Part shown: piece by piece, positions 5,471-60,075 of the stretch
Layout: each line of letters begins with the position of its first letter
Numbering within the stretch: position 1 is the first letter of the stretch
Source of the DNA: Escherichia coli
GTDB taxonomy: Bacteria > Pseudomonadota > Gammaproteobacteria > Enterobacterales > Enterobacteriaceae
Strand: one strand, 5' to 3'
Assembly: GCF_030013205.1 (NCBI RefSeq)
Contig: NZ_CP122648.1
Length of the DNA stretch: 64,000 nt
Notes under the pieces: generated by a model
Told to the model about the DNA's origin: nothing
Databases searched by the model: none
The model's input: only the letters and a program-made list of their open reading frames with translations
Program-made: the position numbers and the translations under genes

Positions 5471-5594
5471 TTTGGCGGCTCCTTTGTCTAATTTACGGAG
5501 TCTCGCCAGCACGCTGCTAAACATGGTGGCGGGACGTAACAGGGTTAGCAGACTGGTGACAAAGAAACCAGCAGGCCTTACGGCCTCCCCATTA

Positions 5595-5718
5595 CGCCCC
5601 GCCATAATACGGGAAAGGGTGGTATTACGGGCACAAAAAAACCGCATTACGGAAATATAGCGGCTACCCGCTTTGTCAATCAGGCTGCTAAACCCGGCAC
5701 CCGCTTTATGAGGTGCGG
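5595..5718 (-). ncRNA. conserved three-block noncoding element, copy A (hairpin, then T7-terminated block, then ATTATGGCGGGGCG on minus strand); candidate sRNA or leader attenuator
   Basis: blocks CGCCCCGCCATAAT, GCACAAAAAAACCGC and CAGGCTGC.AAACCCGGCACCCG.TT..TGAGGTGC recur in same order and similar spacing at 59946-60075. Confidence 0.4.
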
Positions 5719-54966: not shown

Positions 54967-55278
54967 TTACTCAGGAAATAACGCCCGGATATTCCCAGCC
55001 ATCTGGCTGGTTATCTTAGCCACTGGTGCAGACTGTGCTTCAAACTTTTTTGAGCTGATTTGTGTCACAGGTAACATCTCATCATCAGCCCATGCGGCCA
55101 GTCGGTAAGCCTCTGCCGGATTCGTCTTCAGAAGTGCCAGCCCGGCCAGAAAAGCCACGCGTTGGCCGCTTTTGCGGGCTTCTGGTGTAAGGCTGTCCAG
55201 CCAGGCGCATGCTTCTCCTTCGTTCTTGACGGCAGCTGGCTTCAGATAGAAACTTATCCGTCTGGTTGGTGTTGTCAT
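54967..55278 (-). CDS. ParR-like DNA-binding adaptor, about 104 aa from MTTPTRRISFYLK
   Basis: resembles remembered plasmid R1 ParR N-terminus (RRTIAFKL...LDSIPQGERSRLNRAALTAGLALY vs RRISFYLK...LDSLTPEARKSGQRVAFLAGLALL); AAGGAG inside parM 3' end. Confidence 0.6.
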   Translation of the reverse strand: MTTPTRRISFYLKPAAVKNEGEACAWLDSLTPEARKSGQRVAFLAGLALLKTNPAEAYRLAAWADDEMLPVTQISSKKFEAQSAPVAKITSQMAGNIRALFPE

Positions 55279-55282
55279 TGGT

Positions 55283-56242
55283 TTACTCCTTGTCCATTGC
55301 GTACAGCCCATTAACCAGAGCAAACTGTGGCACCCCGTCCGCGATGAAAGTCGCATTAACTCCGCAGGCTTCGCGGATAGCGGGTGCCACAATCTCCGCC
55401 CCGCCACCGACAACCATCACCCGCCCGTAACCCGAAAAACCCGCCAGCGCGCGGATCACGCGTTGTTTCAGTGTTTCTTCCTTTTCACGAATAACCGCCA
55501 TCAGGCTGGCGTAATGCGCGTCATTGTGGATGTGCTGGCGCAGCCAGGCTTCATCATGGCGATGTTCGATAATGGTATTGGCGATGTGGTGACTGGTACG
55601 CATACCGTTAGTGGCCATCACCGACAGTACGGCATCGGCCATCAGGGAAACGCCTACGTGTGGATCGCAAAACACCTGGCTGATACCTGCCAGTTGTCCC
55701 TGAACCTTTGCCACATCCAGCGTGGTTCCGCCTAAATCCACAATCAGCAGGGATTCAAACGGACTCATGTCAGCCAGTGCTTTAAAGCCAGCCGGAATGG
55801 ATTCAGGCATAACCCGTACGTTACGGATAGTGAATGCTTCGCCGTTCTGGTACTCCACCGGGCGCATGACGTTCGCTTTTTTGCGGTTGATGTTGGCCAT
55901 GTCCGGCTGTGCGTTTGTGTCGAAATATTCGCTCAGTGGCAGGGTGACAACCACATCCACTTCCTGTGGTGTGATGCCTGATTTGACCAGCGCGTGATGA
56001 ATGGCAATGACATTCACATCGCTGTACTGGTATTGCGTGTCGGTCGTCTGGACAAAGCGATCGCTGACCGGATCAAAACCATAGCGCACGCCATCAAGCA
56101 TGTAGTTCGCGGGCTGCGTGCCACCGAACGGCGCAGACCATTCCGACTTGAAGCTGTTCGGGCTGATGGCGTTGCGGCGTTCGCCGTTCTCAGTCCATGC
56201 CAGCTTGATGTTGGTGGAGCCGTCATCGATACAAATTTTCAT
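55283..56242 (-). CDS. ParM/StbA-like actin-family ATPase
   Basis: 319 aa; N-terminal MKICIDDGSTNIKLAW and LIVDLGGTTLD phosphate-binding motifs as in plasmid R1 ParM. Confidence 0.75.
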   Translation of the reverse strand: MKICIDDGSTNIKLAWTENGERRNAISPNSFKSEWSAPFGGTQPANYMLDGVRYGFDPVSDRFVQTTDTQYQYSDVNVIAIHHALVKSGITPQEVDVVVTLPLSEYFDTNAQPDMANINRKKANVMRPVEYQNGEAFTIRNVRVMPESIPAGFKALADMSPFESLLIVDLGGTTLDVAKVQGQLAGISQVFCDPHVGVSLMADAVLSVMATNGMRTSHHIANTIIEHRHDEAWLRQHIHNDAHYASLMAVIREKEETLKQRVIRALAGFSGYGRVMVVGGGAEIVAPAIREACGVNATFIADGVPQFALVNGLYAMDKE

Positions 56243-56272
56243 GTCGCTTTTCCTTATGTTGATTAATTAATC

Positions 56273-56383
56273 GCTTACGGGATTCTGAAATCCCGTTTTT
56301 GCCTGTTTTATGCGCGCTTCATATATCGCGGCGCGTTTTTTGCTCATTTACGGGATTTGTGAATCCCGTTTCTGTCTGTTTTT
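56273..56383. repeat. two about 37-bp direct repeats, each a hairpin followed by a T-run (ACGGGATTCTGAAATCCCGT TTTTGCCTGTTTT; ACGGGATTTGTGAATCCCGT TTCTGTCTGTTTTTT)
   Basis: seen in sequence upstream of parM-like gene, second copy inside 3' end of A. Confidence 0.5.
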
Positions 56384-59141
56384 TGTTTCCACTGGTCAGG
56401 CCTCCCCGCAGCAGGTCTGCTTTGCGGCGGGCGCGTTCAGTGGTTTCACTGATTCTCTGTGCGTGCTCTGCGTCGCGGATGGCGCGCAGCATGTCAGAAA
56501 GCACGGTAACGGGTGTTTTCATGGTGTTCTGGTCCTGCTGAAGTGTGGATGCCAGGCGTGCGGCGGCTTCGGGGTCTGATGCCCCCAGCTGTTCCAGATA
56601 GCTGGCGACCGGGTTATGGCGGATCTCCGTGCTGCTTACGCCGTGGTTACGGCTCAGGCGCTGCCAGAGCTGCGTGATCCGGCTGTCCGGTCGGGTATCC
56701 GGTTTGCGTACAATTTCAAATCCCTGCGGTGCAATGATGCTGCCGTCGACGTACAGACTGCCGCCCCGTAACAGGTGCTGCATCTGCTGTTCACCGATAT
56801 GCAGGCCGAGAGATTCAGCAGACTCCCGCCATTCTTTAGCGAGTAACTCGTGGTTATCAGGCAAAGGCCGTGGCTGTTTGCGGCTCTGTGTCCAGTTCTG
56901 CATTTCATCACTGCTGTTTTTTGCCTGTTTGTCACGCAGCGAACGCATCAGCGCCCGGCGTTCGTGCCGTTTCAGTGAGCGCATCCATTCATTCACGTCA
57001 ACGCCGTCAGGAAGCTGCGGCCACGGTGCTGGCCGTTCTTCCGGCTGTTCTGTCCCGTTGTTGTCCGTTTCCTGTACACGGGGACAGTTATTGCCACGAG
57101 TCCAAGGGGCGGCAGGGCCGCCCTGAAGGTCAAAACCATTTTCGCGGGCGCTGTCTTCCGCTTCCGGTTTACGTCTTACCAGCTTCCAGTTATCCGGATG
57201 TGTGCACACACGGGAAGACTCCCCGATGAGCGGTGACCAGATCCCGTAAATCTGTACGCTCTGTTCGCCGTAATCGTTCAGCTCATCTGCGAGGTCGTAG
57301 GCGGTGCGAATCAGGTAGTCTTTGCGTGGAACAAGTACGCCGCCCTGTTTTTCAATGTAGGAGGCAAAACACCCGGCATCAGCGGCAGCGAGCACTGCAT
57401 CCATTGCGTCATCCTTCAGTCGTTGCGGGCCTTCCGGGTTGCGTGCCATCTGGCTGGCAAGGCGGCGCAGTTCACGCCACACCTGACGGGAGGGGATGCC
57501 AAAGAACTGGAACTGGCGGACCCGGTGAAGGCGCGCCCAGCCGATGGCGCGCTCCACGCTCTCGGCCATTGATTTTCCGGTTTCGTGGTCAACGCGTGGC
57601 TTGCCCGTTTTCGGGTCGATACCATCCACGGCGCGGCTGTCCAGGTTCTTTCCGATGTAGGTGGCGATGTAGCTGGTTGGCGTGCCTTTTGAGCCGTCGA
57701 CGTACTCCGCCTTAAAACGCGGAGTTATGTCATCGCCCAGCTCGTGGCGGTCTTCCTGAATGGCAATATCGCAGACGTGGGACACGATGGTTTCAATCTC
57801 GTCCGGATGTGCAAAGACCATCATATGCCAGTGCACAGTGCCGTCATGGTGAGGCTCCACCGTGCGGATGCCATACCAGCGAAGACCGTCGCGGTTCAGT
57901 TTTTTGCGGACCGCCGCAAAAAACGTGTTAACCAGGTAATCGCTGGAGTCGCGCATGGTGGCCCCGTTCCATTTGGGATTCGGATGACCGTTCTCTGTTG
58001 TGGCGTGGTATTTTGACGGGCAGGTGACAGTCAGAAACACCGCTCTGTCGCCACGGGCTTCGGCCAGAAGTTCCAGTCCCTTCATGGTGGCCATCATTTC
58101 TGCCTTACGGTGAACCGGGTTACTTACTCCCGCGTAATACACCGTCTCGAGATCAATCGTGAACCCGTCTTCATTTTCCAGCATGAAACTTTTCAGGAAA
58201 TCGCGTGTTTTCTCGCGCTGTGCGCGAAACTCGCTTAACGCGTCCTGGCTCAGATAGGGTGATGTTTTTCTGGAAACCAGACAGGCGGCGCGGAGTTGTT
58301 CTTCTCTCCACTCGCAACGTAACAGCCACAGTTTGCGTTTCCACCATTCCGCACAGGTCAGGCGAAGGATTGCGCCCGGCAGCAGCTCCGTGTCCGGTTC
58401 GTTCCTCCGGTCTTTGTCTGTTGTCAGTGCGTCATAATGTGGAGGCATGGCGTGCAGGTGTAACGCCATGCGGGCCAGCATCTGATACGCCTTCAGCGTT
58501 ACATCCATGGTCAGTTCGCCATCAGTAGCGCCAAAGCCATCGCAGAGTTTTTCGAAGGTGCTGCTGAACATCGCCGCCGTCATGGTGGCCAGCGTCTGTA
58601 TCTGGTGTTTGTTGAGCTGCGGCAGGTAAAGCAAATCGTCCAGGCGTTCGCGTCCGGCAAGGGAGCGATAACCCGGTGTCAGCCAGCGGTGATCGGTGCG
58701 GTCCAGACGTTCGAATATTTTGCGCAGGGTTCCGCGCGCGTAGCGTTCCGCCTGCCAGCTCTTTTTGCCTTTCTGACGATCGGCTTCCTGCTTCTTGCGC
58801 AGGAAGGAGAGGTGGCGAATAAGCGGATCGCGCAGATAGGACGGCAGCAGGCGCAGCGAGGCCATGGCTTCATCCACCGCGCCGCGTGCCTGTTTTCTGG
58901 CGTCTCCTGCCAGTGTGATGGTTTTGTCCTGTTTTTCCTGTGCGTCCAGGCTTTTATTAATCAGGTTGCCCAGCGGCGTGGCGGAGAACGCCGCATCAGC
59001 CATTTCCTGGCGGCGCTCGTTCTCTACCCGGTAGGCATCCAGCCAGGAGGAAAGCGCGGATTCAGGAGCGGAGATCCCCGTTCCTTCACGCCCCACTGCG
59101 TGGCGCGGTTGTTGCCAGTCCCTGATGTACTCTGCCGTCAT
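56319..59141 (-). CDS. A: P2 gpA-like replication initiation endonuclease, extended (940 aa)
   Basis: rolling-circle Rep motifs and tyrosine region; about 180 aa longer than remembered P2 A. Confidence 0.85.
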   Translation of the reverse strand: MTAEYIRDWQQPRHAVGREGTGISAPESALSSWLDAYRVENERRQEMADAAFSATPLGNLINKSLDAQEKQDKTITLAGDARKQARGAVDEAMASLRLLPSYLRDPLIRHLSFLRKKQEADRQKGKKSWQAERYARGTLRKIFERLDRTDHRWLTPGYRSLAGRERLDDLLYLPQLNKHQIQTLATMTAAMFSSTFEKLCDGFGATDGELTMDVTLKAYQMLARMALHLHAMPPHYDALTTDKDRRNEPDTELLPGAILRLTCAEWWKRKLWLLRCEWREEQLRAACLVSRKTSPYLSQDALSEFRAQREKTRDFLKSFMLENEDGFTIDLETVYYAGVSNPVHRKAEMMATMKGLELLAEARGDRAVFLTVTCPSKYHATTENGHPNPKWNGATMRDSSDYLVNTFFAAVRKKLNRDGLRWYGIRTVEPHHDGTVHWHMMVFAHPDEIETIVSHVCDIAIQEDRHELGDDITPRFKAEYVDGSKGTPTSYIATYIGKNLDSRAVDGIDPKTGKPRVDHETGKSMAESVERAIGWARLHRVRQFQFFGIPSRQVWRELRRLASQMARNPEGPQRLKDDAMDAVLAAADAGCFASYIEKQGGVLVPRKDYLIRTAYDLADELNDYGEQSVQIYGIWSPLIGESSRVCTHPDNWKLVRRKPEAEDSARENGFDLQGGPAAPWTRGNNCPRVQETDNNGTEQPEERPAPWPQLPDGVDVNEWMRSLKRHERRALMRSLRDKQAKNSSDEMQNWTQSRKQPRPLPDNHELLAKEWRESAESLGLHIGEQQMQHLLRGGSLYVDGSIIAPQGFEIVRKPDTRPDSRITQLWQRLSRNHGVSSTEIRHNPVASYLEQLGASDPEAAARLASTLQQDQNTMKTPVTVLSDMLRAIRDAEHAQRISETTERARRKADLLRGGLTSGNKKQTETGFTNPVNEQKTRRDI

Positions 59142-59147
59142 AGTGAT

Positions 59148-59513
59148 TTACTTCGTCATGCCATTCAGGGTGTCGCGGCAGACTGTAGCCAGCCGCTGAA
59201 TTTCCAGCACGGTGTCTTCTGTGTCGGCATGGCGATGTGTGATGCGGATGCTGTCGGCAATCACATCGACGATTGCAGAGGATGGGCGCTGGTAAATGCC
59301 AATAACGGACGGGGTGCCACCTTCAATGCGGTAAAGCCTGTAATTTCCCTCGTGGCTGTCAATCATGTAGCGACCATCAATAACAATCTTTCCGTCAGCG
59401 AGCTGCGGTACAGGCAGGGATTTCAGGTACATGTCATAACGATCACGCACGCGAGCGGCAAGATCACGCTCTGTGTTGAGCAGGTATTCAAGAAAGTCGT
59501 TGGCGAGAATCAT
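59148..59513 (-). CDS. hypothetical early-operon protein, 121 aa
   Basis: ORF track; immediately upstream of A. Confidence 0.5.
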   Translation of the reverse strand: MILANDFLEYLLNTERDLAARVRDRYDMYLKSLPVPQLADGKIVIDGRYMIDSHEGNYRLYRIEGGTPSVIGIYQRPSSAIVDVIADSIRITHRHADTEDTVLEIQRLATVCRDTLNGMTK

Positions 59514-59816: not shown

Positions 59817-59945
59817 GGTGTGGCCCCTTGTGTAGTAAGTTGTGAAAACTCACCATCCAGAGCTGCGAAACTGTGGGTGGCGAGACGTACGAGGTTCGCA
59901 GTACCGGCTACACAAGAACCCGGCCCGACCGAAGTCGGCCCCGTA

Positions 59946-60075
59946 CGCCCCGCCATAATTCTGACGCGAAAAAAACGTGGCAATACAGTACGCACAAAAA
60001 AACCGCTGGCGCGGTTGTGCGCTTGTGTAGTCAGCAGGCTGCGAAACCCGGCACCCGTTTTGTGAGGTGCAGCGG
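59946..60075 (-). ncRNA. conserved three-block noncoding element, copy B (candidate sRNA/attenuator; minus-strand hairpin plus ACCGC-GCCA-GCGGT-T7 terminator)
   Basis: same three blocks as 5595-5718 in same order; track ORF 59510..60127 judged a spurious translation. Confidence 0.4.

Follow-up and report, generated by a model that had tools for sequence, protein, structure and literature searches.

The 940-codon open reading frame on the minus strand of the window (the whole 64-kb stretch of DNA analysed here) encodes a standard replication initiator, already known and annotated, from a P88-like (Xuanwuvirus, P2-family) prophage that is very common in E. coli, and 940 aa is the normal gpA length in this lineage. 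What it has beyond P2 A is mostly a conserved C-terminal region; reading into a partition-gene cassette contributes no more than the final 19–21 codons (Table 1). We regard this overall explanation, namely an ordinary P88-like initiator of normal length with a layered C-terminal excess and a cargo-derived tail, as highly probable. The claim of a first-pass annotation that the protein is unusually long carries little weight, as the gene is known, annotated, extremely common, and of lineage-normal length. Two by-products are of modest value: the cargo-dependent end of gpA, and the roughly 150 residues past the origin (775–921), a conserved, unannotated region of the initiator without a Pfam family or structural relative.

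Table 1. Features of the gpA gene and the adjoining partition cassette, in window coordinates; residue numbers refer to the 940-aa protein.
Feature	Position	Strand	Remarks
parM	55283–56242	-	319 aa; followed by a ParR-like gene
38-nt repeat, copy 2	56275–56312		hairpin at 56277–56296; in the gpA–parM intergenic gap of 76 nt
gpA-family rolling-circle replication initiator	56319–59141	-	940 aa; corresponds to annotated CDS WP_001297579.1 of E. coli K_EC180
Last 21 codons plus stop	56319–56384	-	KKQTETGFTNPVNEQKTRRDI, then stop; left end of the parMR cassette; predicted disordered
38-nt repeat, copy 1	56348–56385		hairpin at 56350–56369; inside the gpA coding sequence
Lineage-specific helical tail, residues 867–921	56379–56543	-	long predicted helix at 877–914
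Conserved C-terminal domain, residues 775–866	56544–56819	-	motif LLRG...W...H...IRxxPVxxY; common to other long gpA proteins
Variable linker, residues 701–774	56820–57041	-	many charged residues
Predicted origin (nick-site region)	57084–57112	-	encodes ...APWTRGNNC; aligns with the annotated 186 rep_origin and with Wphi/P2
Pfam Phage_GPA catalytic region, residues 179–503	57633–58607	-	from Pfam and alignment
Tyrosine pair Y491/Y495 (YIATYIGKN)	57657–57671	-	aligns with Y450/Y454 of Wphi/P2
HUH-type motif H437-W-H439	57825–57833	-	aligns with HWH399 of Wphi/P2

Identity and length of the initiator

At the DNA level, the reading frame was identical (100%) to the replication endonuclease CDS in the RefSeq annotation of K_EC180, and its product shared 98% protein identity with gp16 of phage P88 (YP_009113059.1), which is also 940 aa long. 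In O157:H7, O111, and other prophages, gpA is annotated as 940 or 946 aa. The 3′ 858 nt of the gene were found in 1371 of the 5426 complete E. coli genomes, with a coverage of at least 80% in 1299. A 34.4-kb circular record labelled as a ‘plasmid’ also exists and is apparently an entire P88-like genome.

Several family features support the assignment. The match to Pfam Phage_GPA (PF05840) spanned the whole profile (positions 1–321 of 321; E = 2e-129) and scored 431.7 bits, above the curated cut-off of 31.4 bits, and the full-length match to phrog_91 (‘nicking at origin of replication’) had an E-value of 6e-275. The catalytic region carries both the HUH-type metal-binding motif and the YxxxY tyrosines, the latter aligning with Y450 and Y454, which we take to be the active-site tyrosines of P2 A. 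The gene is the last early gene of the P2-like prophage and adjoins the gpA–gpQ cargo hotspot, in synteny with P88 and K_EC180. The predicted origin sits inside the initiator’s own coding sequence, as is characteristic of the family, and an invariant core, CAATAACTG, is common to this site, the 186 rep_origin, and the Wphi/P2 sequence. Across nine alleles, codons 670–709 showed zero synonymous differences, compared with pS values of 0.04–0.28 in the flanking windows. By homology to P2 and 186 A, the P88-like initiator would be an HUH-type rolling-circle endonuclease that nicks the origin within its own gene.

Compared with better-known relatives, the protein is indeed long. Wphi A, which carries the annotation ‘similar to P2 gpA’, has 761 aa, the CDS in the P2 record 758 aa, and 186 A 694 aa, so that the excess over P2/Wphi A is 179–182 aa; the length taken for P2 A in the first-pass annotation, about 180 aa below that of the window protein, was thus correct. 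Counted between landmarks of P2-type A, the excess comprised 38 residues before HWH, 3 between HWH and YxxxY, 19 between YxxxY and the NNC motif of the origin, and 119 after NNC. The first-pass annotation had placed the extra length in the C-terminal region, which holds for about two-thirds of it, the remainder lying near the N-terminus (38 residues) and in the middle of the protein (22 residues).

It is exceedingly improbable that a true gpA of about 760 aa was lengthened by an artefact or by an event confined to this genome (frameshift, stop loss, or recent fusion). The shorter P2, Wphi, and 186 proteins could be cited for it, as could two phage records (520873 and 503458) that annotate gpA in several pieces, but the portal and par genes are likewise split in these two records, which we therefore read as error-rich assemblies and rejected as a sign of a shorter gene. 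An open reading frame of identical length occurs in P88, K_EC180, O157:H7, O111, and others, the 3′ end of gpA is present in about one-fourth of the complete E. coli genomes, and residues 775–866 are under purifying selection; the agreement with P88 and K_EC180 and the 1371 genomes refute the idea. Because 940 aa is the usual length in close relatives, which the first-pass annotation itself had named as the observation that would count against it, its reading of the length as unusual is refuted.

Conserved region beyond the origin

Selection differed along the protein. When summed over pairs of 8–9 closely related alleles, so that the estimates lack phylogenetic independence, dN/dS was 0.11 in the catalytic domain, 0.10 in residues 775–866 (purifying selection), 0.20 in the variable linker, and 0.89 in the tail (residues 920/922–940), the last figure being imprecise because it covers 21 codons only. 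The AF2 model of residues 775–866 was compact and confident (pLDDT 80.7).

No relatives of the 775–866 domain were found in Pfam, NCBIfam, or PDB. When the first 180 and the last 250 residues were searched against Pfam (E ≤ 10) and NCBIfam, no credible family emerged; the only matches, both sub-threshold, were a Death-domain fragment (E = 0.023) and PSK_trans_fac (E = 0.0048). PDB sequence searches with the whole gpA and with a profile of the C-terminal domain returned no relative. The domain had no detectable similarity to 186 A, and profile comparison with the P2 and 186 C-termini gave only a non-significant 25-residue resemblance between P2/Wphi and the start of the domain. The literature search turned up nothing relevant on the function of the gpA C-terminus. 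Queried with the tail and the domain profile, the protein-database homologue search yielded short fragments only and hence no length distribution for the family. An exhaustive HMMER search with the C-terminal domain, by contrast, recovered an 841-aa gpA of a P2-like prophage together with gpA fragments.

These matches bear on whether the whole post-origin region (about 700–940) could be one recently fused foreign domain that exists elsewhere as an independent protein. The exhaustive search did return several proteins of 82–243 aa that consist mostly of the 775–866 domain, a segment covered by no Pfam family, but wherever the context could be read, they were fragments. One (L019) is cut at a contig end, two others (L017 and L018) have a frameshifted remnant of the gpA linker directly upstream and then the same Zn-ribbon neighbour, and NCBI calls many of the short proteins ‘replication endonuclease, partial’. 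The candidates tested for a stand-alone gene were contig-end or frameshifted remnants and were rejected. Since the same domain forms the C-terminus of an intact gpA of 841 aa with an identity of only about 31%, we consider the domain to be old within the gpA family and a recent foreign fusion to be very unlikely. The fused domain suggested by the first-pass annotation is accordingly no anomaly of the window, given the 940 aa of P88 gp16 and the 100% identity to K_EC180, and survives in a limited evolutionary sense, residues 775–866 being additional relative to P2 and 186. This domain would represent a real, selected layer of the post-origin excess that is common to other long gpA proteins. At a guess, the domain and the following helix may form a protein–protein or oligomerisation module of the initiator.

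Cargo-supplied stop and hairpin repeats

The gpA–gpQ interval is a cargo hotspot of P2-like phages, described in PMC9122126 with 18,150 such loci. In STEC379, where an AAA+S8-peptidase cargo follows an otherwise identical gpA gene, the gene ends at codon 921, and residues 909–921 of the window protein align without gaps to this 921-aa allele as a diverged native C-terminus. In the parMR-bearing allele, CAG is aligned to the stop of the 921-aa allele, and 19 codons more are read before a TGA within the cassette. At another locus (L007), which has a Dam methyltransferase and an AAA ATPase downstream, the gpA tail differs. Homology to these two alleles with other cargo decays past codon 908, and homology to par loci with a different upstream gene begins exactly at window position 56384, in codon 920. 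The lineage-specific helix would therefore be expected to reach as far as the native C-terminus near residue 921; the parMR cassette would abut gpA within an A6 run and replace the native stop, and translation would continue into the first hairpin repeat until the TGA. The 19–21-residue tail, which is disordered in the structure model, would exist because the abutting cassette displaces the native stop, and it is most likely a tolerated by-product and no functional part of the protein. The shifted stop proposed in the first-pass annotation does not explain the whole excess, but it is right for the last ~20 of the 179 extra residues, for which the adjacent cargo supplies the stop.

The same cassette end was seen in other contexts. 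In SWHEFF_58, an unfused piece of 69 nt precedes parM and is itself preceded by a 768-aa gpA and a 151-aa open reading frame. PGAP annotates this piece as a replication-gene remnant, a call that would also suit the reverse course of events, with a piece of gpA having been taken along by the par cassette. In one further locus (L008), an unrelated Zn-ribbon open reading frame shares this terminal peptide and stop; the L017 homologue of that frame has no such tail. An unrelated reading frame can thus gain the same par-derived tail, although caution is needed, L008 being a draft assembly in which frameshifts and a locally duplicated segment occur. With the border of the cargo hotspot lying within the last gpA codons, the C-terminus and stop of the initiator depend on the cargo, giving lengths of 921 aa, 940 aa, and others, which matters for defining the limits of the hotspot and for clustering gpA proteins.

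The hairpin repeat that had been placed within the 3′ end of gpA is real. It consists of ACGGGATT-n4-AATCCCGT in the coding sequence, 29 nt upstream of the gpA stop codon, and the other copy lies in the gap before parM. The two 38-nt direct repeats are 82% identical. Across the 64-kb window, exactly two occurrences of the hairpin core pattern were counted, neither with a mismatch, compared with 0.30 expected even at ≤2 mismatches; the repeats are absent from gpA alleles without par.

Two other roles for these hairpins were weighed against the tolerated by-product. The in-gene copy might be a candidate ParR-binding half-site of a centromere or operator, with a partition complex on the gpA end regulating early-operon read-through into parMR and with the tail peptide constrained by the role of the DNA. 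This is possible though doubtful. The repeats directly precede parM and are co-inherited with parMR, as would be expected of a parC; they travel with the par cassette into different upstream contexts, are missing where par is missing, and form a palindrome present at only two sites in 64 kb. However, a plasmid ParMR relative has two classical clusters of 11-bp iterons, and nothing similar was seen here: arrays of ~11-bp direct iterons flanking a par promoter were not found at this locus, which has two 38-nt repeats only and no tandem array, and a promoter scan of the locus detected no sigma-70-like promoter. The same hairpins were not found upstream of plasmid parM relatives; similarity to these sets in no earlier than the parM ATG, and the plasmid locus has classical iterons in place of the hairpins. 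In P88, moreover, the in-gene copy has lost two of its eight stem pairs without compensation. A still broader proposal, which we judge decidedly unlikely, holds that the two palindromes (one in the last gpA codons) are a candidate unconventional, non-iteron ParR centromere or operator of P88-like phages that couples the end of the initiator gene to ParMR and plasmid persistence, and, separately, that residues 775–921 are a new accessory domain of the initiator without a known fold. If true, the gpA gene end would be physically coupled to ParMR partition, and a P2-family phage could persist as a plasmid.

Alternatively, the hairpins could be intrinsic terminators on the plus strand, unrelated to partition, that stop antisense transcripts of the late portal/terminase operon and the cargo before they reach gpA. 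T-rich tracts (TTTTTGCCTGT and TTCTGTCTGTTTTTTG) follow both hairpins on the plus strand, which led to their being called terminator-like, and the genes for portal and terminase point towards the hairpin region. A-rich sequence follows the hairpins on the gpA sense strand, which also fits termination on the plus strand. The terminator call is nevertheless weak, because the scan gave 4 such sites and shuffled sequences are expected to give 2.0 ± 1.7. Each stem is short, with 8 bp of which 4 are G–C pairs, and about 2.5 kb of minus-strand genes separate the portal gene from the hairpins. We consider termination unlikely.

Comparison with known systems

The closest known counterparts, P88 and K_EC180, share with the window the 121-aa gene upstream of gpA, parM and the ParR-like gene downstream (the conserved part of the latter corresponding to a 103-aa protein annotated in both), the same stop, and the same two hairpin repeats. 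P88 differs in essentially nothing beyond three substitutions in the in-gene hairpin, by which its tail becomes GLTNPA...RSDI.

The P2/Wphi A proteins are 31% identical to window gpA over residues 77–744, with aligned HWH and tyrosine motifs and an in-gene origin with a common core, and their gene is likewise the last in the early operon and adjoins the gpA–gpQ cargo hotspot. In contrast, P2 A is 179–182 aa shorter and lacks residues ~800–940, and P2 has gene B and further early genes and carries old/tin as cargo, not parMR. The 186 A protein is 35% identical over residues 173–739, and its annotated origin aligns with the predicted one in the window, but only 77 residues follow its NNC motif, compared with 254 in window gpA. 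Long gpA proteins, such as the 841-aa protein P0027 in L020, have both the Phage_GPA domain and the C-terminal domain (~32% identity over residues 773–860), and their genes are flanked by early genes and by the portal/terminase genes of a P2-like prophage; they end 5–10 residues past the domain, without the 867–921 helix and without the par-derived tail.

Regarding R1-type ParMR loci, parM and the ParR-like gene match Pfam StbA_N/ParM_N and Plasmid_stab_B, and repeat DNA lies directly upstream of parM in both systems. Whereas 11-bp iterons form two clusters in a related plasmid locus, the window has only two 20-bp palindromes, 73 bp apart.

Identity and length of gpA

The gpA ORF encodes 940 amino acids. 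The entire Pfam Phage_GPA model matched residues 179-503 (E=2e-129), and phrog_91 ('nicking at origin of replication') and phrog_6857 matched the whole protein from end to end. The surrounding prophage is P88-like (genus Xuanwuvirus, Peduoviridae). P88 gp16, also 940 aa, was 98% identical to gpA without gaps, and the gpA CDS was base-for-base identical to one annotated as 'replication endonuclease' in E. coli K_EC180. Alleles of 940 aa were also present in prophages of O157:H7, O111:H2 and other strains, while a 946-aa allele had a different N-terminus. Of 5426 complete E. coli genomes, 1371 contained the last 858 nt of gpA (coverage at least 80% in 1299). Since the same length recurs in P88, other prophages and many E. 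coli genomes, 940 aa is normal for the lineage. The first-pass annotation had taken this length as a possible anomaly, a view that the equally long close relatives overturn; gpA is a known protein, very common and of the usual length in its lineage. Two phage records contained gpA in pieces; their portal and partition genes were fragmented too, and we took them as error-rich assemblies.

An upstream 121-aa gene ends 6 nt 5' of the gpA ATG. According to the 186 record, A can be translated only if the upstream ORF is translated to its end, and by analogy gpA may be translationally coupled to the 121-aa gene. Side-by-side C4 antisense and isrK Hfq-binding RNAs (Rfam) lie 5' of the gpA operon, close to a 'derepression protein' gene; a second such pair about 54 kb away indicates that two elements with an immunity-type module are present in the window.

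Coordinates of gpA, neighbouring features and compared loci
Feature	Sequence	Position	Strand	Detail
gpA	window	56319-59141	-	940 aa
End of 121-aa gene to gpA ATG	window	59141-59150		
Origin-like DNA	window	57084-57112		around gpA codons 677-686
Hairpin copy 1	window	56350-56369		ACGGGATT-n4-AATCCCGT; inside gpA 3' end
Hairpin copy 2	window	56277-56296		in the 76-nt gap before parM
12-bp palindrome	window	56253-56264	-	GATTAATTAATC; perfect
ParR-like gene, mechanical ORF	window	54967-55413	-	148 aa, TTG start, overlaps parM
C4 and isrK RNAs	window	59873-59960 and 59996-60070	-	side by side
Second C4 and isrK pair	window	5522-5609 and 5635-5716	-	
Intervening ORF	L008	5292-5759		Zn-ribbon
Intervening ORF	L017	1567-2076		Zn-ribbon
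Intervening ORF	L009	4004-4459		151 aa
AAA ATPase and S8 peptidase	L010	4906-8276		E. coli prophage
AAA ATPase and S8 peptidase	L019	1720-4914		distant metagenomic relative

C-terminal domain and junction with the partition cassette

Residues 701-940, used as the query in an exhaustive HMMER search, retrieved 27 proteins. Outside close E. coli relatives, similarity was limited to residues ~773-860, a block found at the extreme C-terminal end of gpA (841 aa, intact) from a P2-like prophage that also has integrase, Cox, Ogr, portal and terminase genes. Several short ORFs contained the block too; those with readable context were contig-end pieces or frameshifted gpA remnants rather than independent genes. 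Because the block ends an intact gpA and the readable short ORFs are pieces or remnants of gpA, residues 775-866 are, judging from sequence comparison, an old C-terminal domain of one gpA subfamily. Its dN/dS was 0.10 (catalytic domain, 0.11), and AlphaFold gave a compact alpha/beta model (pLDDT 80.7 for the domain alone). The 186 A C-terminus contained nothing comparable, and P2/Wphi A showed just a non-significant 25-residue resemblance to the first part. Residues 867-921 were confined to the closest relatives, with one long helix predicted at 877-914; dN/dS was 0.25 for residues 867-908, and the sister allele P0021/P0022 stops about 20 residues past the domain, without the helix. Our guess is a putative protein-protein or oligomerisation role for residues 775-921.

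Three kinds of comparison define a module boundary inside gpA. Next to the 3' end of the STEC379 allele (921 aa) are genes for an AAA ATPase and an S8 peptidase; gpA of locus L007 has yet another tail and precedes genes for a Dam-type methyltransferase and an AAA ATPase. Past codon 908, DNA identity to the window decays in both. Read without gaps, STEC379 codons 909-921 are still similar to the window, and its TAA falls at window codon 922 (CAG). In SWHEFF_58, a 768-aa gpA is followed by a 151-aa ORF, a 69-nt piece labelled by PGAP as an N-terminally truncated 'DNA replication protein', and parM; identity with the window starts exactly at 56384, in an A6 run at gpA codons 920-921. In L008, an unrelated Zn-ribbon ORF enters par-cassette sequence and ends with KKQTKTGFTNPVNEQKTRRDI at gpA's TGA, and its L017 homologue terminates in a distinct sequence of its own. 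The L008 assembly is a draft that contains frameshifts and a local duplication, and its tail fusion serves as supporting evidence only. The tail formed by the last 19-21 codons of gpA had a dN/dS of 0.89, from few sites, and was disordered in the structure model.

These alignments are most simply explained if the parMR cassette abuts gpA in the short A-run with its left end, first 38-nt repeat included; that would have removed the native stop, so that translation runs 19 codons further. It agrees with PMC9122126, where the gpA-gpQ interval is described as a hotspot for cargo in P2-like phages. Events may instead have run the other way, with a scrap of gpA carried along by the cassette, which would yield identical present-day anatomy. 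The 'fused domain or shifted stop' first suggested for gpA holds in an evolutionary sense only, in that the C-terminal domain is absent from P2/186 and the cargo-supplied stop adds ~20 residues; neither makes the window unusual.

Some relatives carry an ORF of ~150 aa between gpA and the cargo. Those of L008 and L017 are one conserved Zn-ribbon ORF (C-x2-C ... CC-x-C-x-G), which in L008 has acquired a par-derived tail. One AAA ATPase and S8 peptidase pair lies 3' of gpA in both L010 and L019, and probably represents defence-type cargo that recurs at the hotspot.

Hairpin repeats and the parMR genes

The hairpin that the first-pass annotation had placed within the gpA 3' end is real. The motif has just two occurrences in the window, each embedded in a 38-nt direct repeat, and among the loci compared it is restricted to par-bearing ones. 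With low confidence, the hairpins may be candidate ParR sites, given their position upstream of parM and their movement together with the cassette, but they lack the defining architecture of R1-type parC, and an array like the two clusters of 11-bp iterons in a plasmid ParMR relative was not found at them. Both hairpins are followed by a T-rich tract on the plus strand and were called terminator-like there, so they could also, again with low confidence, be putative stops for antisense transcription coming from the convergent late operon. The in-gene copy of P88 has lost two of eight stem pairs without compensation.

The 12-bp palindrome is located just 5' of the parM ribosome-binding site, with the second hairpin on its other side. 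Its version in strain AH25, GGTTAATTAACC, is changed on both sides with dyad symmetry kept, which suggests a putative protein-binding operator. Pfam and PHROG matches to the ParR-like ORF start at residue 46-51, and 103 aa are annotated in P88 and K_EC180; the true start is thus probably a downstream one. A circular record of 34,461 bp deposited as an E. coli plasmid (NZ_CP148288.1, pZ1323PEC0009-2) contains P88-like early genes, a 946-aa gpA, parM, the ParR-like gene, and terminase, scaffold and capsid genes. This record seems to represent a complete P88-like phage genome that exists as an extrachromosomal circle, which, if true, would explain what the ParMR genes are for.

Comparison with P2, Wphi and 186 A

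The P2 A length assumed in the first-pass annotation was correct: the P2 CDS has 758 aa and Wphi A, annotated as similar to P2 gpA, 761 aa (186 A, 694 aa). Using the conserved HWH, YxxxY and origin-encoded NNC as landmarks, we located the 179 extra residues of gpA. About two-thirds (119) follow NNC, in line with the C-terminal placement first proposed; the remainder precedes it, with 38 before HWH, 3 between HWH and YxxxY, and 19 between YxxxY and NNC.

The origin-like DNA within gpA could be aligned to the origin annotated in 186 and to its Wphi counterpart; the core, CAATAACTG, was invariant. Codons 670-709 had zero synonymous differences among nine gpA alleles (pS 0.04-0.28 in neighbouring windows), the look expected, on sequence grounds, of a cis-acting DNA element within a coding region. 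Identity to gpA was 31% for Wphi A (residues 77-744) and 35% for 186 A (residues 173-739), and H437-W-H439 and Y491/Y495 aligned with the HUH-type motif and tyrosine pair of both; following the P2/186 paradigm, gpA would nick DNA and act in cis.
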